From Somniosus microcephalus (taxonomy: Eukaryota), in the NCBI GenBank assembly GCA_052327205.1, contig JBMRGM010000036.1, positions 33,046,001 through 33,110,000 on the forward strand: a stretch of DNA of 64,000 nucleotides, written 5' to 3'. Made by a program: the position numbers and the translations under genes. Below the pieces are notes generated by a model. It did not search any database, was not told where the DNA came from, and worked only from the letters and a program-made list of their open reading frames with translations. Shown in pieces: positions 1,294 to 60,883 of the stretch (position 1 is the stretch's first letter; each line of letters starts with the position of its first letter).

Positions 1294-1454
1294 CTCATGA
1301 TCTGTTTCAGTAAAAACCTTTACATCAAAAAGCGTCTGACTAACATCCTCCAGGAATTCTTCAATTGAATGTTCTAGTCTCTGCCGGTCGCTCTCGATAA
1401 TTCTGCGCAGCTGGATATCCGGGTCTCTCTCCGGAATTGGTAAGGTTTCCGTAT
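1294..1454 (-). CDS. Exon A (N-half of CARD-like death-fold domain), copy A1
   Basis: tttacaatcag|AT...GAG|gtatgc; 161 nt, phase 1-0, open: DTETLPIPERDPDIQLRRIIESDRQRLEHSIEEFLEDVSQTLFDVKVFTETDHE. Confidence 0.75.
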
Positions 1455-2339
1455 CTGATTGTAAAGTCAAGTTGTAAATGAGAACAGACTAAAATACTGT
1501 GCTACTTTTGAAGCAATGTTTAGTTTGAATTAACTGCTAGAGCAACAGCGTTTTGTAAAGCTTTTCAATCAGTGACACTGCAAATGGCGCCTCACAGCGA
1601 GGAATTAAAAATTTACGCTATCACTTTTTGGCTTATTTAGGAGGAACGAAGCAGGCTTTGCAATCTTCGGAGGTATCTGAAGTAAGTAAGAAGTAGAAAG
1701 ATGGGGGCACTTAGGGACAGTGTCATTGGGATTGACATCTTTGCCTGGGGTGCGGAGTCGAAGAACCGATACAGTGGAGACCACAGCGAGGGAGAGGTGT
1801 TTAACAGAAATGATGTTAAGACTGTAAGGATAAGGTGGGCGGGGCCGTTGATTTGGTTAAAGTTTAATAGGACAATTTTTCATTATATCCGTTTCGGATA
1901 AGACAGGAATATATGTCAGTGACCAAACGGTTTACGGATAAGTGGAACATAGGGTGAATTATTGAATCAAGCAATAGAGCTGTGGACAAGCTGGAGATTA
2001 TAATGTGCTATGCCAGACGGTCCTTTGCGGATTCGAGTCTAAATCACACAAAAGCTTTGATAAAGTAGCAGCAAATATTCATATGGAAGGGCAAGTCCAG
2101 AAAAATAATGTATAATTGTTCCTGACGGTGATCTGAGACTCCAGGTTAGCTTTAATTCTTTGGAATCAGCAGATGCTGCTGATCAATTAGACATAGTCGT
2201 GACTTTCACATGTTTGCCCATGTAGAATTTCATCCTCACAGACAAAGTTAAAATAAGGTTTTCGCGATAAATAGTGAACATTATTTCTCTAACAGTAAAC
2301 ACGATCTTTAGCAAATTAAATTACTTTCTAAACCTGTAC

Positions 2340-2511
2340 CTCTGTTCTGTTTTTCTGAAAGAATCACTTTCTGTTGGTGTTTGATGTTCTGCAGTTCATG
2401 AAATATGCTCCAGATTTGTCTTTCCCCCCGAGCTCCCTTTTCTAGCACAGTATCGAAAATATATCGAGATGCATCTTTTCTGCAGTGTCTTTCAACAAGG
2501 GTTCTGATTGT
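2340..2511 (-). CDS. Exon B (C-half of CARD-like domain), copy B1
   Basis: tttttag|ACA...AGAG|gtacag; 172 nt, phase 0-1, open: TIRTLVERHCRKDASRYIFDTVLEKGARGERQIWSIFHELQNIKHQQKVILSEKQNR. The distal donor is removed by a 24-bp deletion. Confidence 0.7.
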
Positions 2512-2619
2512 CTAAAAAATGAAATCATATTGAGCCAAGTAACACAATAATCAGATAATGAACGTCGTTTCTCTTTCTCCCTCTCTTTGTGAGATGAATG
2601 AATAGAAAATCTCACAATC

Positions 2620-2810
2620 GTGTGACCAGAAGCTTGCTCAAAGTTGTCAGATTTAAGGAGCTTCTTAAAGGAGAGAATTAGTGAAGGGAGTTCAGAGCTT
2701 AGGGCCGAGACAGCTGAAGGCTCTGCTGCCAATGGTGAAGCGAAGAAAATCGGAGAGGAGCAAATGCCCAGAAATGGATGAGCACAGAGATCACAGAGAG
2801 TTGCAGAGAC
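2620..2810 (-). mobile_element. L2-type LINE 3' end fragment in the A-B intron (repeated in every unit)
   Basis: Minus strand GCCTTCAGCTG...CCCTAAGCTCTG...TCCTTTAAGAAGCTCCTTAAA...TTTGAGCAAGCTT matches the typical L2 ORF2 C-terminus (AFS...P.LWN.LP...SFK..LK..LF..AF). Confidence 0.6.
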
Positions 2811-5706
2811 AGAGAGATGCATTGTTCAGCTATTTAAGGAACCCCTTAACTACTCAGATGATAGATTCAAAAGGGTAAAGTTCTGAATAAAAGGGGGAAA
2901 GTTAATTTTGCAGGAATAGCATTCGAGAAAAACCAAGCATGATTGGTTGTTAATAAAAGTAATATTTTGGAAAGCTCACAACGTGGTTTCAGAAATTTAA
3001 ATTGCAGAAATTGAAAAACATAAATTTCTGCGTGAAATTGTTGGCCAGTAGCAGGAAAGGGGCTGATAGCACATCAGTGGCCCACTTTATACCGCGTCCG
3101 CTGTAATTCTATTTATTTCAATTAGTCTTTCATTCATTCCAAGTATCACCTTCATTTGTCGCAACAGCAGCAGAAGCTTATCAGTCACACCTTCATGCTC
3201 TATATGAACCATGTAGTTTTCATCTCTAAACTGCTATGTCCTTTGATTAATAGTTTTTTTAGGAGTTTATAAAATATGATAATTGTCTCTACTTCTGACA
3301 CCTGCCACTCATTCGTTTCATATATTTTGAACGTTTTAGATTCCATTTTATATTCTGCATGTTTCCTTGATTTGTTTTACTTAATCAGCCCTACTACACT
3401 ATATTTATTTTAAAATTTCATATTTAGTTCATTTGCTATGTACGACCAAGCAATTCTGGTTTGTGAATCACCTCTTTTATTCTCCTGAAATTTGTGTAAT
3501 GTCTATGGCAATCTCCTCCTATTTGGCAGATTCTTCTTGCTTCCCCGCGGCCTTTTCTTATCATTAACTTGCCAATATATTTGGGCTAGTACTTTAGTTT
3601 CGTTAAAGTTAGTTTTATTCTTGCAAAATTTCAATTGCTTTGATTGTCACGTTAACTATTAGAGTTTGTATGATTCCTAACGAGATCATATTTTCCTGGA
3701 TGTTCCCCTACCCTTAGATCATCTAATAGTCCCTCCCCGTTTCTAGAAATTGATCCAATATTCATTCCTTCCTTGTTGCCTAAAACCATAGTAATCTAAA
3801 CAACGTACCGGATAGGGTTCAAATACCATGCCCGTTCTCACCCACTTATGTTACTTCTATCCTTTGGATATTTAACGTCACCAACCTCTCTTTTACTGTT
3901 TTTGCTGCACTTTCTCCATTTTTTCTCTATTTATCTACGTCGATCCATTTCTGAATTTTCAATGGATTGTAATAGCTCCTTTATTATTCTGTAACCCCAA
4001 ACGTATAGATTAATTTTGCGAAGCATTCCTTGTATCAGTCCTGACTTTCCCTGCTGCAATTGAATCTTTTAATTATAACTTTTCCCACTTTTTTAAAAAC
4101 GTTATGCCCCATTAATGTTTACTAAAATGAAAATTTAGCTCCTAATTCTGTCCTTACATAAGCGAGATAGCTATTAATATCTGTACATCTAAATTTATAG
4201 CCTAACCCCAGAAAAGCTGCGCATTCAACTAAGCAGCTATATTCGGAATAATTTGTAAATACATGTGTGAGGTAATTGTAGAAGGTGATTTGGAAAAGCG
4301 AGCATATGTATATTATACATGCGTCTAGAGGTTGTTTTAAAGTAATGGGGAATTATGGCAGACTTGACGTCAGACGATGATGACTGGGGAGAGGCTAGTA
4401 TTATTGACGACACTGAGCAGTGAACCGAAGAATGTACATAATCTGAGCATCCGAGGAATCGAGGCGGTAGGTTGCATATACCATAGAATGGATGAATGTT
4501 GCGAGTCATTGGTGATACGAGAGATAATGCAGATTGTGAGTGTTTAGAAATTAAGGAAGTGTTTAGTTCGTTGTAAAAATAGTGGCAGGGAATGTGTTCG
4601 AAAGGCAGAGAGAGGCAGCCATGCTGTGAAGAGCGAAGGAGGAGAGGACTGGACGAACCGATTTGGATACGTTCACTAGAAATCTCTAGCGATCCACACC
4701 ACCAGCTGTGGTTGAAACCAATTAGATGGTTCACTGAAAACAAAGGGCTGCTTTGATAGAGAATGGACGGAAATTCAAGAGCATGAATTCCGACACGTTA
4801 GCTTTTAAAGATCAGTTAATTTCTTCACGTGAGATTAGAAGTATGTCGCTATAAATGTTTTCTTTATTCCGGGGTTTCCACTGCTGCTGTGCTGAGGACG
4901 GATGATGATTGTTCTGCTAGAGGTATCTTATTAACTTATTCATTTCGATTCGTCATGGCTTGGCCCGTGCAATCCTACAATTTGGGGTAATTGATCAATT
5001 GATAGAACGCCCTCCATGTGCGCTTTCAGAAACTAGACTAAACCCATCCCCTGCAGAAGTGCGGCCATTGGAATTCCCGTTAGACCGAGACGTTTCGCTG
5101 TGAATTCACAGATTTGGTTTTAGTCCTGACCTCCAGGATGTTGAGAGTTGCCGATTCGCCGATGGTAATGTCCTTAATTGTAAAGGGGAGGTGATGAGAC
5201 TCTGTCGTGGTGGAGATGGTCATTGCCTGGCACTTGAGTTGCACGAACGTTACTTGCCAGTTATCTGGTCAAACCTGGATTTTGTCCAGGTATTGCTTCA
5301 TACAGGGATGGATTACTTCATTTATGGTGGAATTTGGAATGGAGCTGAACACTGTGCAAACATCAGAGGTCAGCCCCAATACTGACATTATGAGGGCTGG
5401 CCCTTGATGTATCACTTAACGATAGTTGGGCCTAGGGCGCTGCCATGAAGCAAACATAGTTGTACCATAAGATGCTGTTCTGTTATTATTTAGTGCATTA
5501 ATTGATAATTATACAGAAAATTAATTTACCACAGAGGTATCTCAGAGGAGTTCTTCAAATGTTTTTTTACATGGGCATAGGACTGATTTTCAGGGTCACT
5601 ATGGACTACTGCTTATATTGATAGGTTTCTCGGAATGAAGTTAATCAAAATAGCCAATCATATAACTCATTTAATACTATAAGATTCACCCATATATGTT
5701 GCATAC

Positions 5707-5867
5707 CTCATGATCTCTTTCAGTTAACACCTGTACATCAAAAAGCGTCTGACTAACATCCTCCACGAATTCTTCAATTGCATGTTCTACTCTCTGCCGG
5801 TAGCACTCGATAAATCTCCGCAGCTGGATGTCCGGGTCGCTCTCCAGAATTGGTAGGGTTTCAGTAT
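5707..5867 (-). CDS. Exon A copy A2 (CARD-like N-half)
   Basis: ttcag|AT...GAG|gtatgc; 161 nt open: DTETLPILESDPDIQLRRFIECYRQRVEHAIEEFVEDVSQTLFDVQVLTERDHE. Confidence 0.75.
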
Positions 5868-6757
5868 CTGAATGTAAAGTCAAGTTGTAAATGAGAACAG
5901 ACTAAAATACTGTGCTACATTTGAAGCAATGTATAATTTGAATTAACTGTTAGAGCAAAAGCTTTTAGTGAAGCTTTTCAATCAGTCACACTGCATATGG
6001 CGTCTCACAGCGAGGAATTAAAAATCAACGCTATCTCTTTTTTGCTTATTTAGCAGGAACCACGCAGGCCTTGCAATATTCGGAGGTTTCTAATGTAAGT
6101 AAGAATTAGAAAGATGGGGCCCTTAGGGACAGTGTCGTTGAGATTGACATCTTTGACTGGGGTGTGGAGCAGAAGAACCGATACACTGGAGACCACATCG
6201 AGGGAGAGGTGTCCAACAGAAAAGATGCGACGACTTTAGGGATGAGGTGGGCATGCCCGTAGATTTGGTTAAATTTTAAGGACAATTTTTCATAATATCC
6301 GTTTCGGATCAGATAGGAATATATGTCCGTGACCAAAAGATTTATGGATAAGTGGAACAGAGGGTGAAATATTGATTCAAGCAATAGAGCTGTGGACAAG
6401 CTGGAGATTATAACGAGCTACGCCAAATGGTCATTTGTGGAATCGAGTCTAAATCACACAAAAGCATGGATAAATTAGCAGCAAATATTCATATGGAAGT
6501 GCAAGCCCAGAAAAATAACGTATAATTGGTCCTGACGGTGATCTGAAACTCCAGGTTAGACTTAATTCGTTGGAATCAGCAGATGCTGTTGAGCAATTAG
6601 ACATAGTCGTGACATTCACGTGTTTGAACATGTACAATTTCATCCTCACAGGTTTACGCGATAAATAGTGAACATTGTTTCTCCAACAGTAAACACGATC
6701 TTTTGCAAGTTAAATTTGGACACCACATGCCTTCCAAATTACTTTCTAACCCAGTAC

Positions 6758-6929
6758 CTCTGTTATGTATTTCTGAAAGAATCGCTTTCTGTTGGCGTTT
6801 GGTGTTCTGCAGTTCATGAAATATGCTCCAGATTTGTCTTTCCCCCCGAGCTCCCTTTTCCAGCACAGTATCGAAAATATATCGAGATGCATCTTTTTTG
6901 CAGTGGCTTTCAACAAGGGTTCTGATTGT
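6758..6929 (-). CDS. Exon B copy B2 (CARD-like C-half)
   Basis: tttttag|ACAATC...AGAG|gtactg; open: TIRTLVESHCKKDASRYIFDTVLEKGARGERQIWSIFHELQNTKRQQKAILSEIHNR. An alternative in-phase AAG|gcatgt site would end the exon at 6731. Confidence 0.7.
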
Positions 6930-9900
6930 CTAAAAAATGAAATCATTTTGAGCCAAGTAACACAATAATCAGATGGTGAACCTCGTTTCTCTTTCTCCCT
7001 CTCTTTGTGAGATGAATGAATAGAAAATCTTACAATCGTGTGACCAGAAGCTTGCTCAAAGTGGTCAGGTTTAAGGAGCTTCTTAAAGGAGAGAATTAGC
7101 GAAGGGATTTCAGAGCTTAGAGCTGAGACAGCTGAAGTCTCTGCTGCCAATGATGAGGCGAAGAAAATCGGAGAGGAGCAAATGCCCAGAAATGGATAAG
7201 CACAGGGATCACAGAGAGTTGCAGAGACAGAGAGGTGCATTGTTCAGCTATTTAAGGAACATCTTAACTACTCAGATGATAGATTGAAAAGGGTAAAGTT
7301 CTGAATAAAAGGGGGAAAGTCAATTTGGCAGGAATAGCATTCGAGAAAAAACAAGCATGATTGGTTGTTAATAAAAGTAATATTTTGGAAAGCTTACAAC
7401 GTGGTTTCAGAAACTTAAATTGCAGAACTTGAAAAACGTAAATTTCTGTGTAAAATTGTTGGCCAGTAGCAGTAAAGGGGATGATAGCGCATCGGTGGCC
7501 CACTTTATATCGCGTCCGATGTTCATTCTATTTACTTCAATGAGCCTTTCATTCATTCCAAGTATCACCTTCATTGGTCGCAACAGCAGCAAAAGCTTAT
7601 TTGTCACACCATCATGCTCTATATGAACCTTGCAGTTTTCATCTCTAAACTCCTATGTCCTTTGATTAATAGTTTTTTTAGGAGTTTATGAAATATGATA
7701 ATTGTCTCTACTTCTGACACCTGCAGCCATTCGTTTCATATATTTTGAACGGTTTCGATTGCAATTTATATTCTGCATGTTTCCTTGATTTGTTTTACTT
7801 AATCAGCCCTACTACACCATAATTATTTTAAAATTACATTTTTAGTTCATTTTCTATGCACGACGAAGCCATTCTCGTTTGTGCAGCACATCTTTTATTC
7901 TCCTGTAATTTGTGTACTTTCTATGGGAACCTTCTCCTATTTGGCAGATTCTTCTTGCTTCTCCGTGGCCTCTTATCATTAACGTGCCAATATATTTGGG
8001 CTAGTACTTTTGTTTCGTTAAAATTTGTTTTATTCTTTTAAAATGTAATTGCTTTGATTGTCACGTTTACTATTAGAGTTCGTATGAATCCTAATGACAT
8101 CATATTTTCCTGGACGTTCCCCTACCCTTATATCATCAAATAGTCCCTCCCCGTTTCTAGAAATTGATCCAATATTCATTCCTTCCTTGTTGCCTAAAAC
8201 TGTTGTAATCTAAACAACGTACCGGACAAGCTTCAAATACCATGCCCTTTCTCACCCACTTTTGTTAATTCTGTCCTTTGGAGAGTTAACGTCACCAATC
8301 TCTCTTTTACTGTTTTTGCTGCACTTTCTCAATTTTTTCTCTATTTATCTACGTCAATCAATTTCCCAATTTTCAATGGAATGTAATAGCTCCTTTATTA
8401 TTCTGTAACCTCAAACGTATAGAAATAATTTTGCGAAGCATTCCTTATATCAGTCCTGACTATCCCTGCTGCTGTTGAATCTTTTAATTATACCTTTTCC
8501 CTGTTTTCTTTAAAACTTTAGGCCCCATTAATGTTAAGTAAAATGACAATTTAGCTCCTAATTCTGTCCTTACATAAGCGAGATAGCTATTAATATCTGT
8601 ACATCTTAATTTATAGCCTATCCCCAGAAAAGCTGCGCATTCAACTAAGCAGCTATATTCGGAATACTTTGTATATACATGTGTGAGCTAATTGTAGAAG
8701 GTGATTTGGAAAAGCGAGCATATGGATATTATAGATGCGTCCTGAGATTGTTTTAAAGTAATGGGGAATTATGGCAGACTTGACGTCAGACGATGATGAC
8801 TGGGGAGAGGCTAGTATTATTGACGACACTGAGCAGTGAACCGAAGAACGTACATGATCTGATCTGGCCAGGAATCGAGGCAGTAGGCTGCATATACCAC
8901 AGAATGGATGATATTTGCGAGTCATTGGTGATACGAGAGATAATGCAGGTTGTGAGTGTTTAGAAATTAAGGAAGTGTTTAGTTCGATGTAAAAATAGTG
9001 GCAGGGAAGGTGTTGGAAAGGCAGAGAGAGGCAGCCATGCTGTGAAGAGCGAAGGAGGTGAGGACTGGACGAACCGATTTGGATACGTTCACTAGAAATC
9101 TCCAGAGATCCACACCACCGGCTGTGGTTGAAACCAATCAGATGGTTCACTGAAAACAAAGGGCTGCTTTGATAGAGAATGGACGGAAATTCAAGAGCTT
9201 GAATTCCGACACTTCAGCTTTTAAATATCAGTTAATTTCTTCACGTGAGATTAGAAGTATGTCGCTATAAATGATTTATTTATTCCGGGTTTCCACTGCT
9301 GCTGTGCTGAGGACGGATGATGATTGTTCTGCTAGAGGTATCTTATTAACTTATTCATTTCGATTCGTCACGGCTTGGCCCGTGCAATCCTACAATTTGG
9401 GGTAATTGATCAATTGATAGAACGCCCTTCACGTGCGCTTTCAGAAACTAGACTAAACACGTCCCCTGCAGAAGTGCGGCCATTGGAATTCCCGTTAGAC
9501 CGAGACGTTTCGCCGTGAATTCACAGGTTTGCTTTTAGTCCTGACCTCCAGGATGTTGAGAGTTGCTGATTCGCCGATGGTAATGTCCTTAATTGTAAAG
9601 GGAAGGTGATGAGACTCTCTCGTGGTGGAGATGCTCATTGCCTGGCACTTGAGTTGCACGAACTTTACTTGCCATTAATCTGGTCAAACCTGGATTTTGT
9701 CCAGATATTTCTTCATACAGGGATGGATTACTTCATTTATGGTGGAATTTGGAATGGAGCTGAACGCTGTGCAATCATCAGAGTTCAGCCACAATGCTGA
9801 CCTTATGAGGGCTGGCTATTGAAGTATCACTTAACGATAGTTGGGCCTAGGGCGCTGCCATGAAGCAAACATAGATGTACCATAAGGTGCTGTTCGCTTA

Positions 9901-10120
9901 TTATTTAATGCATTAATTGAAAATTATACAGCAAATTAATTTACCACAGATGTATCTCAGAGGAGTACTTTAAATGTTTTTTACATGGGCATAGGACTGA
10001 TTTCCCGCGTCACTATTGACTACTGCTTATATTGTTAGGTTGCTCGGAATAGAGTTAATCAAAATAGCCAATCGTATAACTCATTTAATACTATATGATT
10101 CACGCATATATGTTGCATAC

Positions 10121-10281
10121 CTCATGATCTGATTCAGTTAGCACCTTTACATCATAAAGCGTCTGACTAACATCCTCCACGAATTCTTCAATTGAATGTT
10201 CTAGTCTCTGCCGGTAGCACTCGATAAATCTCCGCAGCTGGACATCCGGGTCGCTCTCCAGAATTGGTAGGGGTTCAGTAT
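10121..10281 (-). CDS. Exon A copy A3 (CARD-like N-half)
   Basis: ttcag|AT...GAG|gtatgc; 161 nt open: DTEPLPILESDPDVQLRRFIECYRQRLEHSIEEFVEDVSQTLYDVKVLTESDHE (absent from the ORF track because it has no start codon). Confidence 0.75.
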
Positions 10282-11161
10282 CTGAATGTAAAGTCAGATT
10301 GTAAATGAGAACAGACTAAAATACGGTGCTACCTTTGAAGCAAAGTATAATTTGAATTAACTGCTCGAGCAACAGCGTTTAGTAAAGCTTTTCAATCAGT
10401 GACACTGCAAATGGCGCCACACAGTGAGGAATTAAAAATTAACGCTGTCTCTTTTTGGCTTATTTAGGAGGAACGACGCAGGCCTTGCAATATTCGGAGG
10501 TGTCTAATGTAAGTAAGAAGTAGAAAGATGGGGGCCCTTAGGGACAGTGTCATTGAGATTGACATCTTTGCCTGGTGTGCGGAGCAGGAGAACCGATACA
10601 CTGGAGACCACAGCGAGGGAGAGGTGTCTAACAGAAAAGATGTTAAGACTGTAGGGATAAGGTGGGCGGGGCCGTAGATTTGGTTAAAGTTTAAGGACAA
10701 TTTTTCATAATATCCGTTTCGGATAAGATAGGAATATATGTCAGTGACCAAATGGTTTACGGATAAGTGGAACAGCGGGTGAATTATTGAATCAAGCAAT
10801 AGAGCTGTGGAAAAGCTGGAGATTATAATGAGCTACGCCAAATGGTCGTTTGCGGAATCGAGTCTAATATAAACAAAAGCATGGATAAAGTAGCAGCTAA
10901 TATTCATATGGAAGTGCAATTCCAGAAAAATAACGTATAATTGTTCCTGACGGTGATCTGAGACTCCAGGTTAGACTTAATTCGTTGGAATCAGCAGATG
11001 GTGTTGAGCAATTAGACATAGTCGTGACTTTCACATGTTTGCCCATGTAGAACTTCATCCTCACAGACAAAGTTAAAATAAGGTTTTCGCGATAAATAGT
11101 GAACATTGTTTCTCCAGCAGTAAACACGATCTTTTGCAAGGTAAATTTGGACACCACATAC

Positions 11162-11360
11162 CTTCCAAATTACTTTCTAACCCAGTCCCTCTGTTATGTA
11201 TTTCTGAAAGAATTGCTTTCTGTTGGCGTTTGGTGTTCTGCAGTTCATGAAATATGCTCCAGATTTGATTTTCCCCCCGAGCTCCCTTTTCCAGCACAGT
11301 ATCGAAAATATATCGAGATGCATCTTTTCTGCAGTGTCTTTCAACAAAGGTTCTGATTGT
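11162..11360 (-). CDS. Exon B copy B3 (CARD-like C-half, long form)
   Basis: ttttag|ACAATC...GAAG|gtatgt; 199 nt, phase 0-1, open: TIRTFVERHCRKDASRYIFDTVLEKGARGENQIWSIFHELQNTKRQQKAILSEIHNRGTGLESNLE. Confidence 0.75.
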
Positions 11361-14300
11361 CTAAAACATGAAATCATATTGAGCCAACTAACACAATAAT
11401 CAGATAATGAACGTTGTTCAACTTTCTCCCTCTCTTTGTGAGATGATTGAATATAAAATCTCACAATCGTGTGACCAGAAGCTTGCTCAAAGTGGTCAGA
11501 TTTAAGGAGCTTCTTAAAGGAGAGAATTAGCGAAGGGATTTCAGAGCTTAAGGCCGAGACAGCTGAAGGCTCTGCAGCCAATGGTGAGGCGAAGAAAATC
11601 GGAGAGGAGCAAATGCCCAGAAATGGATGAGCACAGAGATCACAGAGAGTTGCAAAGACAGAGAGGTGAAATGTTCAGCTATTTAAGGAACCTCTTAACT
11701 ACTCAGATGATAGATTGAAAAGGGTAAAGTTCTGAATAAATGTGCGAAAGTCAATTTGGCAGGAAAAGCATTCGAGAAAAAACAAGTATTATTGGTTGTT
11801 AATAAAAGTAATATTTTTGAAAGCTCACAACGTGGTTTCAGAAACTTAAATTGCAGAAATTGAAAAACATAAATTTCTGTGAAATTGTTCGCCAGTAGCA
11901 GGAAAGGGGTTGATAGCGAATCGGTGGCCCATTTTATACCTGATGTTCAATCTATTTAGTTCAATGAGCCTTTCATTCATTCCAAGTAACACCTTCATTG
12001 GTCGCAACAGCAGCAAAAGCTTATCCGTCACACCTTCATGCTCTATATGAACCATGTAGTTTTCATCTCTAAACTGCTATGTCCTTTGATTAATAGTTTT
12101 TTTAGCAGTTTATGAAATATGATAATTGTCTCTACTTCTGACACCTGCCACTCATTCGTTTCATATATCTTGAACGATTTCGATTCCATTTTATATTCTG
12201 CATGTTTCCTGGATTTGTTTTAATTAATCCGCCCTACTACCCTATATTTATTTTAAAATTTCATTTTTAGTTCATTTTCTATGCACGACCAAGCAATTCT
12301 CGTTTGTGCAGCTCATCTTTTATTCTCCTGAAATTTGTGTCATTTCTATGGCAATCTTCTCCTATTTGGCAGATTCTTCTTGCTTCTCCGTGGCCTTTTT
12401 TTTTCATTAACGTGCCAATATATTTGGTCTAGTACTTTAGTTTCGTTAAAATTATTTTTATTCTTGTAAAATGTAATTTTTTTCCATTGTCACTTTAAGT
12501 ATTAGAGTTCGTATGATTCCTAACGAGATCATATTTTCCTGGATGTTCCCCTACCCTTAGATCATCTACTAGTCCCTCCCTGTTTCTATAAATTGATCAA
12601 ATATTCATTCCTTCCTTGTTGCCTAAAACCGTAGTAACCTAAACAAGGTACCAGACAGGCTTCAAATACCATGCCCTTTCTCACACACTTATGTTACTTC
12701 TATCCTTTGGAGAGTTAACGTCACCAATCTCTCTTTTACTGTTTTTGCTGCACTTTCTCCATTTTTTCTCTATTTATCTACGTCGATCCATTTCCCAATT
12801 TTCAATGGATTGTAAGAGCTCCATTATTATTCTGTATCCCTAAACGTATAGATTAATTTTGCGAAGCATTCCTTATATTAGTCCTGACTTTCCCTGCCGC
12901 AATTGAATCTTTTAATTATACCTTTTCCCTGTTTTCTTTAAACTTTATGCCCCATTAATGTTTAGCAAAATGACAGTTTAGCTCCTAATTCTGTCCTTAC
13001 ATAAGCGAGATAGCTATTAAAATCTGTACATCATAATTTATAGCCAATCCCCAGAAAAGCTGCGCATTTAAATAAGCAGCTATATTCGGAATGCTTTGTA
13101 TATCCATGTGTGAGGTAATTGTAGAAGGTGATTCGCAAATCGAGCATATGGATATTATAGATGCGTCCAGAGATTGTTTTAAAGTAATGGCGAATTATGG
13201 CAGTCTTGACGTCAGACGATGATGACTGGGGAGAGGCTAGTATTATTGACTACACTGAGCAGTGAACCGAAGAACATACATGGCCAGGAATCGAGGCAGT
13301 AGGCTGCATATACCATAGAATGGATGATATTTGCGAGTCATTGGTGATACGAGAGATAATGCAGATTGTGAGTGTTTAGAAATTAAGGAAGTGTTTAGTT
13401 CGATGAAAAATAGTGGCACGGAAGGTGTTGGAAAGGCAGAGAGAGGCAGTCATGCTGTGAAGAGCGAAGGAGGTGAGGACTGGATGCGCTAATTTGGATA
13501 CATTCACTCGAAATCTCTAGAGATCCACACCACCGGCAGTGGTTGAAACCAATCAGATGGTTGACTGAAAACAAAGGGCTGCTTTGATAGAGAATGGACG
13601 GAAACTCAAGGGCTTTAATTCCGACACTTTAGCTTTTAAATATCAGTTAATTTCTTCACGTGGGATTAGAAGTATGTCACTATAAATGTTTTTTATTCCG
13701 GGGTTTCCACTGCTGCTGTGCTGAGGACGGATGATGATTGTTCTGCTAGCGATATCTTATTAACTTATTCATTTCGATTCGTCTTGGCTAGGCCCGTGCA
13801 ATCCTACAATTTGGGGTAATTGATCAATTGATAGACGCCCTGCATGTGCGCTTTCAGAAACTAGACTAAACCCATTCACTGCAGAAATGCGGCCACTGGA
13901 ATTCCCTTTAGACCGAGACGTTTTGCTGTGAATTCACAGATTTGGTTTTAGTCCTGACCTCCAGGATGTTGAGAGTTCCCGATTCGCCGCTGGTAATGTC
14001 CTTATTTGTAAAGGGGAGTTGATGAGACTCTCTCGTGGTGGAGATGGTCATTGCCTGGCACTTGAGTTGCACGAACGTTACTTGCAACTTATCTGGTCAA
14101 ACATGAATTTCGTCCAGATATTGCTTCATACAGGGATGGATTACGTCATTTATGGTGGAATTTGGAATGCAGCTGATCACTGTGCAATCATCAGAGTTCA
14201 GCCCCAAGAATGACCTTATAAGGGCTGGTCATTGAATTATCACTTAACGATAGTTGGGCCTAGGGCGCTGCCATGAAGCAATCATAGATGTACCATAAGA

Positions 14301-14534: not shown

Positions 14535-14695
14535 CTCATGATCTGTTTCAGTAAACATCTTTACGTCAAAAAGCGTCTGACTAACATCCTCCACGAATTC
14601 TTCAATTGAATGTTCTAGCCTCTGCCTGTAGCACTCGATAAATCTCCGCAGCTGGATATCCGGGTCGCTCTCCAGAATTGGTTGGGTTTCAGTAT
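14535..14695 (-). CDS. Exon A copy A4 (CARD-like N-half)
   Basis: ttcag|AT...GAG|gtatgc; open: DTETQPILESDPDIQLRRFIECYRQRLEHSIEEFVEDVSQTLFDVKMFTETDHE. Confidence 0.75.
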
Positions 14696-15584
14696 CTGAA
14701 TGTAAAGTCAAGTTGTAAATGAGAACAGACGAACATACTGTGCTACTTTTGAAGCAATGTTTAATTTGAATTAACTGCTAGAGCAAGAGCTTTTAGATAA
14801 GCTTTTCAATCAGTGACACTGCATATAGCGCCTCACAGCGAGCAATTAAATATTAACGCTATCTCTTTTTGGCTTATTTAGGAGGACCGATGCAGGCCTT
14901 GCAAAATTCGGAGGTGTCTAAAGTAAGTAAGAAGTAGAAAGATGGGGCCCTTAGGGAAAGTGTCATTGAGATTGACATCTTTGCCTTGGTTGTGGGGCAG
15001 CAGAACCGATACAGTGGAGACCACAGCGAGGGAGAGGTGTCTAACAGAAAAGATGTTAAGACTGTAGGGATAAGGTGGGGGGGCCGTAGGTTTGGTTAAA
15101 GTTTAAGGACAATTTTTCATAATATCAGTTTCGGATAAGATAGGAATATTTGTCAGTGGCCAAATGGTTTACGGAAAAGTGGAACATGGGGTGAATTATT
15201 GAATCAAGCAATAGAGCTGTGGACAAGCTGGAGATTATAATGAGCGACACCAAACGGTCGTTTGCGGAATCGAGTCTAAATCACACAAAAGCATGGATAA
15301 ATTAGCAGGAAATATTCATATGGAAGTGCAAGTCCAGAAAAATAACGTATAATTGGTCCTGATGGTGATCTGAGACTCCAGGTTAGACTTAATTCGTTGG
15401 AATCAGCAGATGCTGTTGAGCAATTAGGCATAGTCGTGACATTCACCTGTTTGCCCATGTACAATTTCATCCTCACAGGTTTACGCGATAAATAGTGAAC
15501 ATTGTTTCTCCAACAGTAAACACGATCTTTTGCAAGTTAAATTTGGACACCACATGCCTTCCAAATGACTTTCTAACCCAGTAC

Positions 15585-15756
15585 CTCTGTTATGTATTTC
15601 TGAAAGAATCGCTTTCTGTTGGCGTTTGGTGTTCTGCAGTTCATGAAATATGCTCCAGATTTGTCTTTCCCCCCGAGCTCCCTTTTCCAGCACAGTATCG
15701 AAAATATATCGAGATGCATCTTTTCTGCAGTGTCTTTCAACAAGGGTTCTGATTGT
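15585..15756 (-). CDS. Exon B copy B4 (CARD-like C-half)
   Basis: tttttag|ACAATC...AGAG|gtactg; open frame. An alternative in-phase AAG|gcatgt site would end the exon at 15558. Confidence 0.7.
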
Positions 15757-18946: not shown

Positions 18947-19107
18947 CTCATGATCAGTTTCAGTAAGCACCTTTACATCAAAAAGCGTCTGACTAACATC
19001 CTCCACGAATTCTTCAATTGAATGTTCTAGTCTCTGCCGGTAGCACTCGATACTTGTCCGCAGCTGGACATCCGGGCCGCTCTCCAGAATTGGTCGGGTT
19101 TCAGGAC
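18947..19107 (-). CDS. Exon A copy A5 (CARD-like N-half; first cassette of the young array in transcription order)
   Basis: ttcag|GT CCT GAA...GAG|gtatgc; open: xPETRPILESGPDVQLRTSIECYRQRLEHSIEEFVEDVSQTLFDVKVLTETDHE. Confidence 0.75.
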
Positions 19108-20404: not shown

Positions 20405-20557
20405 TTCTCTGTGTGTAATCTTTTCCGCGATGATCTCTCCAGTTTGTCAACCAATAAGTTACAAAGACTGCTACTGCTCCCAACACTGTTGCAGCAATGC
20501 CTGTACATACGACGGGAATTATGTATTGTTCTTCCGTTATTGCTTTATCGCCAATCA
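20405..20557 (-). CDS. Candidate single-pass transmembrane exon (phase 1-1; alternatively a terminal exon reading to the stop at 20244)
   Basis: ttcattaatttacag|TG ATT GGC...AGA A|gtaagg; 153 nt open: (V)IGDKAITEEQYIIPVVCTGIAATVLGAVAVFVTYWLTNWRDHRGKDYTQR. 25-residue uncharged hydrophobic run with an acidic N-flank and a basic C-flank. Not part of any recognised TE. Confidence 0.5.
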
Positions 20558-34645: not shown

Positions 34646-34649
34646 TCAT

Positions 34650-40353: not shown

Positions 40354-43300
40354 CTAGGCGCAGCTCTTCCTGACTTGCCTCGACTAAAGCCAGTCTGAAA
40401 TAAACGGAATTTTGATATGTACGCGCTGCCTATCTGGCACAGGCGTTTGTGCTGGCAAGCCCGTTCTGCAGAGAACGGAAGAGCCGGTTTCCAGCGCATG
40501 CGCAGTGCAAGCGTAAAACCAGCACTTCCTTTGGCCCTACGGGTGAGTACACAATGTTTACACACCCGGAGGGAACGGAATTTCTACGGCATCAAACCGC
40601 ATGTTTCTGCGTTAAATTGCATCTGCCAGGTGTCCGCCCATTCCGCCAGCCTTTCTATGTCCTCTTGAAGTCTATCAGTTTTCTTTCCACTGTTCACTAT
40701 ACTTCCAAGTATTGTGTAATGTGAAAATGTTGAAATTGTGCACGGTACACCCATGTCCAAATCATAACTATATATCCAGAAAGCAGTGGTCCTAGTACCG
40801 ACCCCAGGGGAAAACCTTCTTCCAAACCTCAAAAGAAACGTTCCCCAGTACTATCTGTTTCCTCTCGCTTAGCCAATTTCATATCGATGCTGCCATTGTT
40901 CCTTTCAGTCCATAGGTTTCAACTTTGCTCTTTCGTCTATTAAGTGGCACCTTCTCAAACGTCTTTTGGAAATCCATGTGCACCACATCAACCGCATTGC
41001 TCACCAGCCCTTCCATCACCCACTCTGTTGTCGCATGAACAAATTAATGAAGTTAGTTAAACATGATTTGCCTTTGAAACATCTGTGCTTACTTTCCTTA
41101 ATCAATCCACAACTTTCTAAGTGACTTTTAATTCGTCTCGATTTATCGTATCTAAAAGCTTCCCCATTATCGAGGTAAAACTGACTGGTCTGTAGTTGTT
41201 GGGTTTTTCCTTAGAGCCTCTTTTGAACAGGGGTGTAACATTTGCAATGTTCCAGTCCTCTGGCACCACCCCCATATCTAAGGAAGCTGGGAAGATTATG
41301 TCCAGTAACTCCTCAATTTTCACCCTTACCTCCCTCACCATCGTAGGATTCATCCCATCCGGTCAGTCAGCGTTATTGTACCTCCTCTATATCAATTTTT
41401 AACCAATCCAGTATTGCAACTACCCCCTCTTTCACTACGGCGTTGACAACATCTTCTTCCTTGGTAAATTCAGATGCAGAATTCACATTTATTACCTCAG
41501 CCATGCCATCTGCCTGCATGAGTACGTCTCCTTTTCTGTCAGTTGTCAGCCCCAACCCATCACTTACTGCCTGTTTATTATTTACATGCATATAGAAGAC
41601 TTTTGGATTCCCTTTGATGTTAGCTGCCAATCAATTCTCATCCTCTCTCTTTGCCCCTCGTATATCATTTTTCACTTCGCCTCTTAAATTTCTATGTTCA
41701 GATGCAATATCGCCCGTTTTCGAAGAAGCCATACTACAGGACCTATTGCCTCGATCGCCTATTATACACTGCGCCTGAATAACCTTGAATAGATCTAAAT
41801 ACTGGGCGTGTTTTATAACGGTCGGCAAATACGAAGCCGCCTGTTTTGTTTACCCGTCCATTTCGAATTTTATCCTCACAGACGAACTTAAAATAAAGTC
41901 CTGCCGATAGATAATGAACGTTGTTACTCTTACCGTAAACACGATCTTTTGCAAGTTAGAGTTGAATACCACATACCTTCCAGGTTATTTTCTAACCATG
42001 TATCTCTATTCTGTATCTCTAAAATTATCTCTTTCAGCTGGGGTTTGGTGTTCTGCAGTTGAAGAAATATGTTCCAGATTGTTCTTGCTCCACGAGCTCT
42101 CTTTTCCAGCACAATATTGAAAATGTGTCTGGAAGCGTCGTATCTGCGCCGACTTTCAGCTGTAGATCTGATTGTCTAAAAAAAATTGCAATCATATTGA
42201 GCCAAGTAACACAATAATCAGATAATAAACGTTTTTTCTCTTTCTCCCTCTATTTATGAGACGAAATAATAGAGCATTTCACAATCGGATGAGCAGAAGC
42301 TTGTTCAAAGTGATAAGATTTAACGAGCTTCTTAAAGGAGAGGTTCGGCGAAGGAATGTCAGAGCTCAGGGCCGAGGCAGCTGAAAGCTCTGCTGTCAAT
42401 GGTGAGGCGAAGAAAATCGGGGATCAGCAAATGTCCAGGATTGAAGGAGCACAGAGATCACGGAGAGTTGCAGAGAAAGAGATGAACATCGTTGAGCCAT
42501 CCAGGGAAACTCTAAATTCTCACCAACAGATGGAAAATGATAAAGTGCTGAATAAAAGGGGGAAAGTTAAGATTGCAGGAATAGGATTCGACAAAAATCA
42601 AGCATTATTGGTTGTCAGTTACAGTACTTTTTCTTAAGCTCACAAAGTGGTTTCACAAACACAAATTGCCGAAATTGAAGACATAAAAATGTGCGTGATT
42701 TTTTTGTTGGCCAGTAGCACGAAAGGGGCTGATAGATAGTCGGTGGCCCACTTTATGCCGCATCAGATTATCAGTCAATTTACTTCAGTGAGCCTTTCAT
42801 TCAATCCAAGTATCACCTTCATTCATTGAAACAGTAGCAAATGGTTATCAGTCGGTTCTCCATGCACTTTATGAATCTTGTAGTTTATATCTCTAAACAG
42901 CTCTGTACTTTGATAAACTGTTTTTGAGGAGATTATGCAATATGATACTTGGCTCTAATGTTGACACCTGCCACTCATTCGTTTCATACATTTTGAATGA
43001 TTTCGCTTCTATTTTATATTCTCTATTTTTCCTTCATTTGTTTTTCTGTATCAGCCCTACTACCCTTTATATATTTTAAAATCTCATTTTTCGGTCATTT
43101 TCTATGCTCGCCGAAGTAATTCTAGTTTCTAAAGCACCTCTTTTATTCTGGTCTAATTTCTGTATCTTCTATGGCGCTCTTCTCCTATTTGGCAGATTCT
43201 TATTGTTTTTCCGCTGCATAATGTGCTCGTTAACGTGCCAATATATTTGGGCTGTATTTTACTAGCGTAAAAATTGGTTTTACTCCTGTAAAATGAATAT

Positions 43301-45284: not shown

Positions 45285-45285
45285 C

Positions 45286-45446
45286 CTCATGGTCTGTTTC
45301 AGTAAACACGTTTACATCAAATAGCCTCTGACTAACATCCTCCACGAATTCTTCAATTGAATGTTCTAGAATCTGACGGTTGCACTCGATAATTCTCCGC
45401 AGCTGGATATCCGTGTAGCTCTTCATCATCAGTAACGTTTTAGCAT
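45286..45446 (-). CDS. Exon A, older cluster (CARD-like N-half)
   Basis: tattcag|AT...GAG|gtatgc; 161 nt open: DAKTLLMMKSYTDIQLRRIIECNRQILEHSIEEFVEDVSQRLFDVNVFTETDHE. Confidence 0.75.
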
Positions 45447-48291: not shown

Positions 48292-48490
48292 CTTCCAGAT
48301 TATTATCTAACCATGCAACATTTTTCTGTATCTCTGAAAGTATCGCTTTCAGCTTGGGGTTGGTGCTCAGAAGTTCAAGAAATATGTTCCAGATTGTTCT
48401 TTCTCCCCGAGCTCCCTTTTCCAGCACAGTATCGAAAATATGTTTGGTGGCATCGTTTCTGCTCTGACTTTCAGCTAGAGATCTGATTTT
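48292..48490 (-). CDS. Exon B, older cluster
   Basis: gttttag|AAAATC...GAAG|gtatgt; 199 nt open: KIRSLAESQSRNDATKHIFDTVLEKGARGERTIWNIFLELLSTNPKLKAILSEIQKNVAWLDNNLE. Confidence 0.75.
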
Positions 48491-51596: not shown

Positions 51597-51757
51597 CTCA
51601 TGATCTGTTTCAGTAAACACTTTTACATCAAAAAGTTTCCGACTGACAGCCTCCACGAATTCTTCAATTGAATGTTCTATTCCCTGACGGTAGAACCCGA
51701 TAATTTTCCGCAGCTGGATATCCGTGTAGCTGTTCAGCATCAGTAAGCTTTTAGCAT
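51597..51757 (-). CDS. Exon A, older cluster
   Basis: aattcag|AT...GAG|gtatgc; 161 nt open: DAKSLLMLNSYTDIQLRKIIGFYRQGIEHSIEEFVEAVSRKLFDVKVFTETDHE. Confidence 0.75.
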
Positions 51758-53668: not shown

Positions 53669-53867
53669 CATTCAGGTCATCTTGTATCTCTGTACCATTG
53701 TTCTGTATCTCTGTCAATGTTGCTTTCAGCTTGGGTTCTGTATCCTGCCGTTGAAGAAATGTGTTCCACATTGTTCTTACTGTCCGAGCTCCCTTTTCTA
53801 CCACGGTATTGACAAGGTGTCGTGAAGCATCGCTTCTGTGCTGTTTATCAACAAGGGTTCTGATTCT
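53669..53867 (-). CDS. Exon B, older cluster
   Basis: tcttttag|AGAATC...AATG|gtgcgt; 199 nt open: RIRTLVDKQHRSDASRHLVNTVVEKGARTVRTMWNTFLQRQDTEPKLKATLTEIQNNGTEIQDDLN. Confidence 0.75.
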
Positions 53868-56952: not shown

Positions 56953-57113
56953 CTCATGATCTGCTTCAGTAATCAATTTTACATCAAAAAGTGTCTGACT
57001 AACTTCCTCCACGAATTCTTCAATTGAATGTTGTAGTTTCTGACTGTAGAGCCCGATAATTCTCCGCAGCTGGTTATCCGTGTAGCTCTTCAGCATCAAT
57101 AATGGTTTAGTAT
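56953..57113 (-). CDS. Exon A, older cluster
   Basis: aattcag|AT...GAG|gtacgc; 161 nt open: DTKPLLMLKSYTDNQLRRIIGLYSQKLQHSIEEFVEEVSQTLFDVKLITEADHE. Confidence 0.75.
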
Positions 57114-58134
57114 CTGAATTTACTGTCAAGGTGTAAATGAGAACAGATTAATATACTGTGCCCGCTATAAAACAATGAATAATCCGGACCAAATGATCTA
57201 GCAACAGACTTTATTAAAACCTTTCAACAGTGATACCGCCAGTGGCTCCTCAGAGAGGAGGAATTAATAATTAATGCTCTCTTTTTGATGTAGTTAGGAG
57301 GAACGACCCAGTATTTGCAATATTCGGAGGCTGGTTAATGTAAGTAAGAATTAGAAAGAGGTGGGCCCTTTGGAACGGAGTCAGTGGGATTGACATCATT
57401 GCATGGAGTGCGGAGCAGAAGAACCGATACACTGGAGACCACAGTGAGAGAGAGGTGTGTAACTGAGGGGATGTTAAGAAGAATGTAGGGATCAGAAGGA
57501 ATACAGGAAAATGTGTAATTCATTTCACACATGATCAATTTGGGATAAGAAGTGAATGTAATTCATTGACCAAGTTGTTCACGGAACTGAGGGTGAATTT
57601 GAATTCAAGAAATTGAGTTGTGGTCAAGATGGAGTTCATGATGGGCTAGACCCAAAGGTTGTTGGAGGAATCGAGTCTAAAGCTCACAAAAGCATGGATA
57701 AAGTACCAGCAGATATTCTAATTGGATTGCATTTCCAGAAAAAATACCCTATAATTGTTCCTGACGGTGATCTGAGACTACAGATTAGATTTAGTGCCTT
57801 GGAATCAGCAGATGCTGTTGAATAATTAGACATATTCTTAACTTTCACATGCTTGCCTGAATAGCTAATAAATAGCATAGAGGTTAATAGTATGAAACAG
57901 TAAATAACACTTAATTCGTGCTTCCATTTTCCATCTTTATTTTAAGGAAAACTATATTGTGAATCAGAAACTGACAAATGGAAATATTTTGAAGCCAACA
58001 GGTAGTCAAACTAAACTTTATGGATATCAATACACCGAGTACAGGAAACAAAACTTTGGGAAAAGAGATTTCATTATAAATAGAAAATAATCACACAAAG
58101 ACAAGTACTTTAGCTTAGACATGACTGCAGCTAA

Positions 58135-60405
58135 TACAGTTCCACAAGCACATCTCATCTCAACCTTTTCTGCTCTAAGGAGAATAGAATCAGCTTCTTC
58201 AGTCAATCCACATAACCAAATCCCTCATCCCTGGAACCAATCTTGTCAATTTTTTCTGCACCCTCTCTAATGCCTTCATATTATTCCTAAAGTGCCGTGC
58301 CCAGTATTGGACACAATACTCCAGTTGAGGTCGAGGCAGTGTTTAAAAAAAAGTCATTATATCTTCCTTGCTTTTGTACTCTATCACTCTATTTATGAAA
58401 CCAGTCCCCTGTAAGCTTTTTAACCACTTTCTCAACCAGCACTGATACATTCAACGATTTGCGCACATGTACCACCAGGTCTCTCTGATCATGCAGCCCG
58501 TTTATCATTGAACCCTTTATTTTATATTGCCTCTCCTCGGTCTTACAATCAAAATATATTGGCCCAGAAATTCCCATCGGAGGTGAAAGCTCCCGGCCTG
58601 CACAAACGAACTGCACCGATCGTAATGATCTGAGCCGGCGTACAGTTCTGCTCATGCGCCTCCTCAAACTGCCCGACACGTATCCCAGGGGCGCAACCAG
58701 TTTGCAGCGTCCCTGAGATCACATGGGCCATGGGGAGCCATTCGGAGCAGGGAATCTCCATTCATAAATTTGACAGGAAGACCTGTCAAATCTATGAATA
58801 GAGATCAGTCCTAAAACATAAGTAAAACTTCAAATAAATTAAAAAGAAAAATTACATTTTTAAAATGACTATAAATTACATAAATTAACTATTTTAAACA
58901 AAAATGTAAATTTTTCAAAAAAATAATTAAAGTATTTATCAGGGCTAACAATAAACGTACCTTTCTTTAAAGTATTTCACAATGATAAATCTGTGGAAAA
59001 ACATTTTTTTTACTTTCTTAAACTATTAACCTGCTAAAAGCAGGCCTTGCACCTGCATTTCTAGGCGCAGCTGTTCCCGACTTACCTGGACTCAAGCCAG
59101 TCTGAAAAAAACGGAATTTTGATATGTACGCGCTGCCTATCTGGCACAGGCGTTTGTCCTACAAGCCCGTTCTGCAGAGAACGGAAGAGCCGGTTTCCAG
59201 CGCATGCGCAGTGCAAGCGTAAAACCAGCACTTCCTTTGGCCCTATGGTTGAGTACATAGTACTTACACACCCGTAGGGAACGGAATTTCTATGCCATCA
59301 AACCGCACGCTTCTGCATTAAATTTCATCTGCCAGGTGTCCGCCCATTCCACCAGCCTTTCTATGTCCTCTTGAAGTCTATCAATTTTCTTTCCACTATT
59401 CACTATACTTCCAAGTATTGTGTGATGTGAAAATGTTGCAATTGTGCACGGTACACCCATGTCCAAATCATAACTATATATCCAGAAAAGCAGTGGCCCT
59501 AGTACCGACCCCAGGGGAAAACCTTCTTCCAAACCTCAAAAGAACCGTTCCCCAGTACTATCTGTTTCCTGTCGCTCAGCCAATTTCATATCGATGCTGC
59601 CATTGTTCCTTTCAGTCAATAGGTTTCAACTTTGCTCTTTCGTCTATTAAGTGGCACCTTATCAAACGTCTTTTGGAAGTCCATGTGCACCACATCAACC
59701 GCATTGCTCACCAGTCCTTACACCACCCACTCTCTTATCGCATGAGCAAAATTAATCAAGTTAGTTAAACATGATTTGCCTTTGAAACAACTGTGCTTAC
59801 TTTCCTTAATCAAACCACAACTGTCCAAGTGACTGATAATTTGTCCCGATTTATCCTATCTAAAATCTTCCCCATTATCGAGGTAAAACTGACTGGTCTG
59901 TAGTTGTTGGGTTTTTCCTTAGAGCCTCTTTTGAACAGGGGTGTAACATTTGCAATGTTCCAGTCCTCTGGCACCACCCCCGTATCTAAGGAAGCTGGGA
60001 AGATTATGTCCAGTAACTCCTCAATTTTCACCCTTACCTCCCTCACCATCGCAGGATTCATCCCATCCGGTCAGCCAGCCTTTATGTACCTCCTCTATAT
60101 CAATTTTTAACCAATCCAGTATTGCAACAACCCCCTCTTTCACTACGACGTTGACAACATCTTCTTCCTTGGTAAATTCAGATGCAGAATTCACATTTAG
60201 TACCTCAGCCATGCCATCTGCCTGCATGAGTACGTCTCCTTTTCAGTCAGTTTTCAGCCCCACCCCGTCTCTTACTGCCTGTTTATTATTTACATGCATA
60301 TAGAAGACTTTTGGATTCCCTTTGATGTTAGTTGCCAATCAATTCTCATCCTCTCTCTTTGCCCCTCGTATATCATTTTTCACTTCGCCTCCCAAATTTC
60401 TATGT
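58135..60405 (-). mobile_element. Decayed CR1 (shared ancestral insertion) interrupted by a MITE
   Basis: GFPLGSVLGPLLF, LQEDIERLVEWADTWQMKFNAE, VVPEDWNIANVTPLFKRG. Confidence 0.85.
58561..59296. mobile_element. MITE-like element with 14-bp terminal inverted repeats (left-truncated copy at ~40083-40590)
   Basis: GGCCCAGAAATTCC ... GGAATTTCTATGCC (12/14 inverted match); AT-rich centre; CR1 sequence resumes on both sides. Confidence 0.7.
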
Positions 60406-60684
60406 TCAGATGCAATATCGCCCGTTTTCGAAGAAGCCATACTACAGGACCTATTGCCTCGATCGCCTGTTATACACTGCGCCTGAATAACCTTGAATAG
60501 ATCTAAATACTGGGCGTGTTTTATAACGGTCGCCAAATGCGAAGCCGCCTGTTTTGTTTACCCGTCCATTTCGAATGTTATCCTCACAGACAAACTTAAA
60601 ATAAGGTCCTGCCGATAGATAATGAACGTTGTTACTCTGACCGTAAACACAATCTTTTGCAAGTTAGAGTTGAATACCACATAC

Positions 60685-60883
60685 CTTCCAGGTTATTTTC
60701 TAACCATGTATCTCTATTCTGTATCTCTAAAATTATCTCTTTCAGCTGGGGTTTGGTGTTCTGCAGTTGAAGAAATATGTTCCAGATTGTTCTTGCTCCA
60801 CGAGCTCTCTTTTCCAGCACAATATTGAAAATGTGTCTGGAAGCGTCGTATCTGCGCTGACTTTCAGCTGTAGATCTGATTGT
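60685..60883 (-). CDS. Exon B, older cluster (its exon A partner is expected to end at ~64003, just outside the window)
   Basis: ttttttag|ACAATC...GAAG|gtatgt; 199 nt open: TIRSTAESQRRYDASRHIFNIVLEKRARGARTIWNIFLQLQNTKPQLKEIILEIQNRDTWLENNLE. The window ends in ...tttgttgcat, the intron flank of the exon A donor. Confidence 0.75.

Follow-up and report, generated by a model that had tools for sequence, protein, structure and literature searches.

What kind of gene carries a long string of alternating death-fold exons is the question raised by a 64,000-nucleotide stretch of the Somniosus microcephalus genome (assembly GCA_052327205.1, contig JBMRGM010000036.1, positions 33,046,001 to 33,110,000; hereafter the window), in which a first-pass annotation, made from the letters alone, had seen a chain of CARDs standing by itself. 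Examined together with 100 kb of flanking DNA on either side, the array appears instead to be the front end of an NLR gene, with NACHT and leucine-rich repeat (LRR) exons just outside the window. On balance we favour one membrane-anchored NLR gene in the order hydrophobic exon, six CARDs, transmembrane (TM) exon, five CARDs, NACHT and short LRR, in which the CARD string would serve as a multivalent filament seed; what carries this reading is the exon order, the phases, the open frames, the predicted CARD fold of a homologue, and the intact NACHT and LRR exons. The host genome measures 6.4 Gb, and the nearest NLR relatives of the locus come from sharks and rays. Throughout, a contig position equals 33046000 plus the window position, and window values outside 1-64000 denote extension along the contig.

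Two exon types, A and B, alternate strictly on the minus strand from 60883 to 1294, with eight copies of each in the window, exactly as first described, and the flanks add three more of each (A at 64163, 70466, and 75769; B at 67191, 72629, and -1875). The earlier estimate of at least nine rounds of amplification thus becomes a count of 11 cassettes, arranged as six at 75769-41977 and five at 19107 to -2073. Every A and B exon translates without a stop or frameshift (11/11 cassettes), which upholds the corresponding claim for the 16 exons of the window, and the phase symmetry of the A+B cassette, with phase 1 at both ends, also stands. The claim of intact splice sites holds in part: exon A is 161 nt long, phase 1-0, with AG..GT ends in 11/11 copies, and every B exon has a GT donor, but the longer of the two phase-1 donors of exon B, which lie at 172 nt and 199 nt, is not always preserved. 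The 199-nt donor reads GTATGT in 7/11 copies and GTGCGT in 1/11 (GT in 8/11), and is altered in the other three: the copies at 15756 and 6929 have GC there, and in that at 2511 a 24-nt deletion has taken the donor out. The B exons of cassettes 7, 9, and 10 retain just the weak GT at 172 nt, scoring 3.5-4.0 versus 9.9 when donor scores are computed with approximate base frequencies, while no copy (0/11) has lost both donors. Among 146 genome-wide B-exon matches (150 of 222 candidates scored), the 12 best are the 11 cassettes and a sister gene. The exons of the locus are as follows, in window positions unless the contig is named.

contig 33124129-33124281 (window 78281-78129), minus strand: TM' exon, 153 nt, phase 1-1, Met at codon 7, signal-peptide-like
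contig 33121609-33121769, minus strand: exon A of cassette 1, upstream of the window
contig 33118431-33118629, minus strand: exon B of cassette 1, upstream of the window
contig 33116306-33116466, minus strand: exon A of cassette 2, upstream of the window
contig 33112993-33113191, minus strand: exon B of cassette 2, upstream of the window
contig 33110003-33110163, minus strand: exon A of cassette 3, upstream of the window
60685..60883, minus strand: exon B of cassette 3, 199 nt, donor GTATGT
56953..57113, minus strand: exon A of cassette 4
53669..53867, minus strand: exon B of cassette 4, 199 nt, donor GTGCGT, GT also at 172
51597..51757, minus strand: exon A of cassette 5
48292..48490, minus strand: exon B of cassette 5, 199 nt
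45286..45446, minus strand: exon A of cassette 6
41977..42175, minus strand: exon B of cassette 6, 199 nt, with 21.4 kb of repeat-rich DNA between it and the TM exon
20405..20557, minus strand: TM exon, 153 nt, phase 1-1, acceptor TTTACAG, donor GTAAG
18947..19107, minus strand: exon A of cassette 7
15558..15756, minus strand: exon B of cassette 7, 199-nt donor GC, weak GT at 172 nt
14535..14695, minus strand: exon A of cassette 8
11162..11360, minus strand: exon B of cassette 8, 199 nt, donor GTATGT
10121..10281, minus strand: exon A of cassette 9
6731..6929, minus strand: exon B of cassette 9, 199-nt donor GC, weak GT at 172 nt
5707..5867, minus strand: exon A of cassette 10
2340..2511, minus strand: exon B of cassette 10, 172 nt, 199-nt donor deleted
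1294..1454, minus strand: exon A of cassette 11
contig 33043927-33044125, minus strand: exon B of cassette 11, downstream of the window
contig 33030053-33031772 (window -14228 to -15947), minus strand: NACHT exon, 1,720 nt, phase 1-2, open
within contig 33027656-33028527, minus strand: three LRR/terminal exons of 87, 192, and 88 nt, open, ending in TGA

Self-comparison resolves positions 1-19871 into units of about 4.4 kb that are 90-93% identical to one another and about 76% identical to the copies in 41858-64000. Short-read contigs from two DNA runs, one of which may be the assembly's own sample, cover 30/30 bins of window 1-20000, so this part of the array is not an assembly artefact. Compared with the assembly, these contigs place none of the three listed indels in exons, and two of the 40 substitutions shown (70 in total) are exonic, one silent and one missense.

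Identification of the cassette as a CARD depended on homologues. Pfam scans of single A and B exons gave no match, and a word-indexed search with exon B yielded 0/12 candidates. A profile of 11 B exons (ten cassettes plus the sister gene) retrieved 60 proteins at E 0.001 among 1.84 billion, and Pfam CARD lay above cut-off in two of the eight homologues scanned and below it in two more. An AlphaFold model of the basking-shark homologue XP_078390056, based on a 42-row alignment, reached a predicted local distance difference test score (pLDDT) of 86-98 over residues 151-260, the folded sequence being that of the homologue, 29-51% identical to the aligned exon peptides, whereas the cassette halves of the window are separated by introns. 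The same protein folded without an alignment gave pLDDT 41 and was unusable. In a structural search with the model, 21 of the 23 best matches were CARD-bearing chains, the other two being a designed protein and an untitled entry; the best match to a CARD had Z 11.3 and a root-mean-square deviation of 1.9 over 96 residues, with death domains lower at Z 6-8. Foldseek with this model returned nothing at E 0.001, and the first 14/14 rows were CARD-bearing chains. All 11 joined cassettes match an independent, home-built CARD profile assembled from cod, bat, and distant shark proteins outside the family (E 4e-8 to 8e-4), with reversed controls above E 4. Judged from the modelled homologue and this profile, the cassette encodes a shark-NLR-type CARD, in agreement with the death-fold identity first proposed. 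A search with catshark residues 50-625 found only the catshark protein itself among 7,992 candidates, a PDB sequence search with the family alignment matched the NACHT/LRR parts alone and no CARD, and the ESM Atlas gave no usable match. In exon A of cassettes 7-11, prolines and acidic residues have been gained in the segment preceding the CARD, which forms a helix in the homologue's model, and the net charge is -4 to -7 there versus -3 to +2 upstream.

The first-pass annotation had set the number of CARDs far above the one or two of NOD2 or RIG-I; 11 cassettes are indeed open, but they are split 6+5 by a TM exon that had been missed and that separates cassettes 1-6 from 7-11. This exon (20557-20405) encodes a predicted membrane helix with mean hydropathy 2.33 and net charge -2 before and +2 after it, basic residues following the helix. 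A loss of its donor by a 16-nt deletion was considered and ruled out, as the GTAAG donor upstream of the deletion is kept in 4/4 aligned paralogous copies. The TM' exon ahead of cassette 1 is a less hydrophobic copy of the TM exon (1.89) and has a Met; of the four aligned copies, the one at 20557 is alone in having lost this residue. A Pfam scan of both hydrophobic exons gave no match. N-glycosylation sequons were rejected as a sign of luminal position, since they occur in 3/6 upstream and 0/5 downstream cassettes, too few and non-independent, and the post-TM CARD of the catshark has two. About 90 nt upstream of the TM-exon acceptor lies a retroelement of long terminal repeat type (20647-22213), absent from the sister gene, whose 364-bp direct repeats are 89.6% alike and flank a short gag-like frame.

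Inspection of the flanks for NACHT or LRR sequence, as the first-pass annotation had recommended, located an intact NACHT exon 12 kb past cassette 11, complete with winged-helix (WH) and HD2 regions, and three LRR exons. Pfam matches to the former (NACHT 6e-32, NLRC4_HD2 4e-11, NOD2_WH 2e-10) are all above cut-off, and its Walker A motif, GAAGIGKS, is intact. The genome yields 75 scored NACHT matches of 390 candidates. The stretch from cassette 6 to the TM exon contains no NACHT match, and the next one comes after cassette 11. The LRR exons match the LRR tails of homologues P0003, P0013, and P0009 in tblastn, have canonical splice sites and matching phase-2 borders, and end in a stop at -18344, giving a short LRR region. 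Cassette and NACHT phases fit, and homologous models join CARD and NACHT parts; on paper the NACHT exon follows cassettes 7-11 in frame, unlike the case of CARD-only decoy proteins of the COP, INCA, and ICEBERG type. Joined together, the 11 cassettes, both hydrophobic exons, the NACHT exon, and the three LRR exons comprise 6,252 nt, or 2,084 codons with one terminal stop. A linker exon between cassette 11 and NACHT was represented by one poor candidate, which was not accepted. No immunoglobulin (Ig) exon was recognised at the locus, whose 5' gene end was not located, and the closest shark models show no Pfam Ig match. The intron between cassette 11 and NACHT contains, at about -4100 to -9300, retroelement frames that are presumably of Gypsy type and are absent from the sister gene.

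Selection on the cassettes guards the reading frame strongly but the individual residues weakly. Over 333 nt (exon A plus the first 172 nt of B, the 27-nt extension that holds the cassette-10 deletion lying outside the count), exon gaps number zero in 55/55 copy pairs. The introns, described earlier as rich in indels, contain 106 distinct ones, 93 of them not multiples of three, from which 9.8 would be expected in the 333 exon nucleotides (P0 5.5e-5); the chance of no frameshift is 0.005 for the upstream six and 0.059 for the downstream five. It had been left open whether so many open exons might be expected under neutrality, and in neutral simulation on the intron tree all 11 copies were stop-free in 0/4,000 runs (6/4,000 for the upstream six alone, 156/4,000 for the downstream five), with a stop arising in 9.5/11 copies on average compared with 0/11 observed. 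Between the two groups, exon identity is 79.2% versus 77.6% for introns, and the mean pairwise ratio of nonsynonymous to synonymous divergence (dN/dS) is 0.64, rising to 0.78-0.89 within groups. The copies fit the family profile better than neutral simulations (fold score P 0.001-0.004), a test in which the parsimony root somewhat favours the observed data; prolines are fewer than simulated (P about 0.01), and core polar residues are borderline (P 0.04-0.08). A kept frame combined with drifting residues fits redundant modules in series.

A sister NLR gene about 275 kb away on the same contig (33.30-33.33 Mb) provides a reference for the origin of the array. It has the same exon order with a TM exon and one cassette, and its NACHT is 94% identical, although it is decaying: its Walker A Gly has become Cys, exon A has lost 6 nt, and a stop interrupts LRR exon 2. 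Cassettes 7-11 group with this gene in the intron tree and therefore multiplied after that split. The upstream block is an old duplicate comprising cassettes 1-6 with their own TM exon copy and about 5 kb of 5' DNA. It may be proposed that unequal crossing-over, which phase 1 at both cassette ends would permit, multiplied the cassette twice, from one to six after an old duplication of TM exon plus cassette, and from one to five after the split from the sister gene. A third, broken paralogue, in which the B-NACHT-LRR part is duplicated 18.8 kb apart, has an inverted copy at 33.90-33.93 Mb of the contig.

In the favoured single gene, a stop or frameshift in any cassette would cut off the NACHT-LRR part and be selected out, whereas residue changes would be largely tolerated because the copies are redundant. 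Clustering of NACHT at the membrane would allow the CARD string to seed filaments of adaptor or caspase CARDs, and a NACHT oligomer with five or more CARDs per chain could form a seed even when few copies are present. Adaptor CARD filaments are nucleated by the CARDs of receptors (PMC6168553, PMC11874512), and by analogy with NOD2-RIP2 and RIG-I-MAVS such a seeding step may be proposed here. The five post-TM CARDs are predicted to be cytosolic in every version, while the location of the first six would depend on splicing: luminal with the TM exon included and TM' acting as signal peptide, cytosolic with the TM exon skipped. The atypical Walker B, the absent winged-helix His, and the short LRR suggest that clustering, more than a ligand of the LRR, switches the sensor. 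A His mutation in the winged helix of NLRC4 causes autoinflammation (PMC8260849). That His is presumed to be equivalent to the position occupied by Asp in the locus.

Several observations weigh against such a gene. Two hydrophobic exons in one chain mean that one must be a signal peptide or be skipped, and three of the five downstream B exons have weak or GC donors alone. No start or signal-peptide exon was found upstream by a scan for ATG, hydrophobic stretch, and donor, by tblastn with the N-termini of relatives, or among donors shared with the sister gene. In the NACHT, the second acidic residue of Walker B is missing (DDLDQ) and Asp replaces the winged-helix His, features seen within the TM-bearing shark subfamily, where Walker B is DD(L/F)x versus DGLDE in other relatives and several members lack the winged-helix His. 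Selection on amino acids, for which codon models had been suggested, proved weak: the tree-based omega of 0.91 is not significantly below 1 (p 0.28), family-conserved columns are not significantly better kept (0.84 versus 0.95, p 0.22), a conserved Leu is lost in cassettes 7-10, and a conserved Tyr is lost in four cassettes. The A-B and B-A joins anticipated from the annotation did not appear in two RNA runs chosen by species label, of which 24% and 31% was read and whose tissue of origin was not stated; window 1-20000 received 12 and 3 reads without joints, the NACHT and LRR exons had no cover, and no RNA run was listed as matching the NACHT exon. The supporting shark proteins, moreover, are automatic models, and the DNA that lies 5' of the TM exon is present a second time with the upstream block, as expected of a separate gene.

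This last point leads to a minority possibility, namely two adjacent genes, one for a membrane CARD-only protein (TM' followed by six CARDs, or the six with the TM exon as tail anchor) acting as decoy or adaptor, the other for a TM-CARDx5-NACHT-LRR sensor. Such an arrangement would accommodate an old duplicate whose introns are about 78% identical to the downstream group and which brought along a TM exon of its own together with about 5 kb of 5' DNA, as well as the several AATAAA words in the 21.4-kb gap after cassette 6, the stop met about 50 codons on when the TM donor is read through, and the Cetorhinus model, which stops after its TM. Yet the donor at the end of cassette 6 is perfect, with no recognisable terminal exon; loss of the Met from the TM exon at 20557 is what an internal exon could show; in two separate catshark annotations (P0004, P0037) CARDs lying before and after the TM exon belong to one chain; and late stops, which should be cheap in a redundant CARD-only chain, are absent. 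An improbable alternative is that each transcript takes one or a few cassettes, the array being a repertoire of alternative CARDs for different partners or pathogen baits. Skipping any cassette or hydrophobic exon keeps the frame, the weak donors of cassettes 7, 9, and 10 invite it, and an omega near 1 could mask diversifying selection, but skippable copies should sometimes decay and 0/11 have, and the Mustelus and Scyliorhinus models hold all repeats in series. That the locus is a silent or recently dead gene, an unexpressed tandem product of unequal crossing-over, is very unlikely: the lack of RNA cover, the near equality of exon and intron identity, the missing start exon, and the broken neighbouring paralogues are set against stops in 0/11 copies versus 9.5/11 simulated, zero indels versus 9.8 expected, a NACHT dN/dS of 0.38 relative to the sister gene, and C-terminal exons and splice sites that are all intact.

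Within the favoured single gene, a more specific and rather doubtful variant is a type I receptor with CARDs on both faces of the membrane, in which TM' would be a signal peptide, six CARDs would be luminal or extracellular, the TM exon would span, and five CARDs plus NACHT-LRR would be cytosolic. The features cited for the signal-peptide reading are a kept Met, a gained Arg, and a shortened hydrophobic core, and the catshark and basking-shark models represent an older, independent version of CARDs before a TM, orthologous between both species. A death fold outside the cell has a precedent in the secreted DcR3, in the available text of PMC11874512. If true, such a two-faced receptor could capture CARD filaments or ASC specks from dying cells and relay them to a CARD seed in the cytosol, and splicing that left out one or the other 153-nt exon would move the six CARDs to the opposite side of the membrane.

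Comparison with 36 long NACHT relatives, all database proteins being automatic models, places the locus among related architectures. Mustelus asterias XP_078087540.1 is TM-CARDx3-NACHT-LRR and Scyliorhinus torazame XP_072354261.1 is hydrophobic leader-CARDx4-TM-CARD-NACHT-LRR, each in one chain, Cetorhinus maximus XP_078390056.1, which came from the B-exon profile search, is leader-CARDx2-TM, and ray models show ectodomain-TM-CARD-NACHT. Like the locus, the three shark models repeat the same CARD unit (3, 5, and 2 times, respectively) beside a comparable TM segment, and they share a short LRR tail and a Walker B without the canonical GLDE; the NACHT of the locus is 48-49% identical to those of Mustelus and Scyliorhinus. 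In contrast, eleven CARD copies and two TM-type exons set the locus apart. In a tree of 35 CARD rows, which omits Mustelus repeat 2, the pre-TM CARDs of catshark and basking shark pair across species (100/99, 98/88), whereas the six pre-TM CARDs of the locus group with this genome's post-TM copies and Mustelus (87/78, unstarred). A single origin was rejected as one clade (p-AU 0.042). Pre-TM CARDs are therefore old in one lineage and were probably remade separately in the locus.

Among described systems, an NLRP-related NACHT-LRR expansion in whale shark has been proposed to replace NLRP inflammasome sensors (PMC8455134); like the locus it consists of shark-expanded NACHT-LRR genes, and the text examined mentions neither CARD strings nor membrane anchors. 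NOD2 and RIG-I/MDA5 resemble the locus in having CARDs in series, shown there to seed an adaptor CARD filament (available sections of PMC6168553, PMC11874512), but they have two CARDs and no membrane anchor, compared with 5 to 11 CARDs in the locus. NACHT combined with transmembrane segments, as in the locus, is described in the accessible parts of reports on sea cucumber AjNLRC4 and AjNLR-new (PMC13133943) and on anthozoan NLRs with 3-4 TM (PMC3879445), although these invertebrate membrane NLRs have Ig or multi-pass N-termini, no CARD string, and a different lineage. Shark Ig-TM-CARD-NACHT models (XP_041047653) form a separate, distant subfamily at 28% identity. Database models with Ig and NACHT, from sharks and reedfish and mostly with a hydrophobic segment between, represent a second kind of membrane-anchored vertebrate NLR. 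Arctic cod CAL8349490.1 has eight Pfam CARD stretches in one automatic model, along with death-domain matches; unlike the locus, it has no Pfam NACHT match and a different repeat unit. The open-access literature searched contained no description of shark CARD strings or membrane-anchored shark NLRs.

An NLR with CARDs is a known kind of protein; to this the locus contributes a 6+5 division of the CARDs by a TM exon, a one-cassette sister as control, and selection on frame rather than residues. To judge from its exons, the gene likely makes a membrane-bound sensor whose CARDs far outnumber the one or two found in known sensors, and its significance is limited by the absence of any transcript in the two RNA runs. 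In known receptors, the CARD number that starts a filament is reached through oligomers of subunits with one or two CARDs, whereas exon-cassette amplification appears here to lift the number per chain from one, as in the sister, to five or eleven; CARD valency is in this sense a natural variable, testable against signalling threshold. The locus also points to a membrane-fixed shark NLR subfamily and possibly to death-fold domains outside the cell. With the frame kept while residues vary almost freely, the cassettes clearly exemplify modules whose main constraint comes from what follows downstream.

The gap between cassette 6 and the TM exon contains further repeats. A very recent 1.8-kb tandem duplication, 99.7% identical, follows cassette 6 at 36714-40362, and a broken long interspersed nuclear element, which we take to be of CR1 type, lies on the minus strand at 28300-31050. 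A minisatellite at 25872-26587, with 24 copies of units of about 30 bp, several of them containing donor-like words, is also present in the sister gene.

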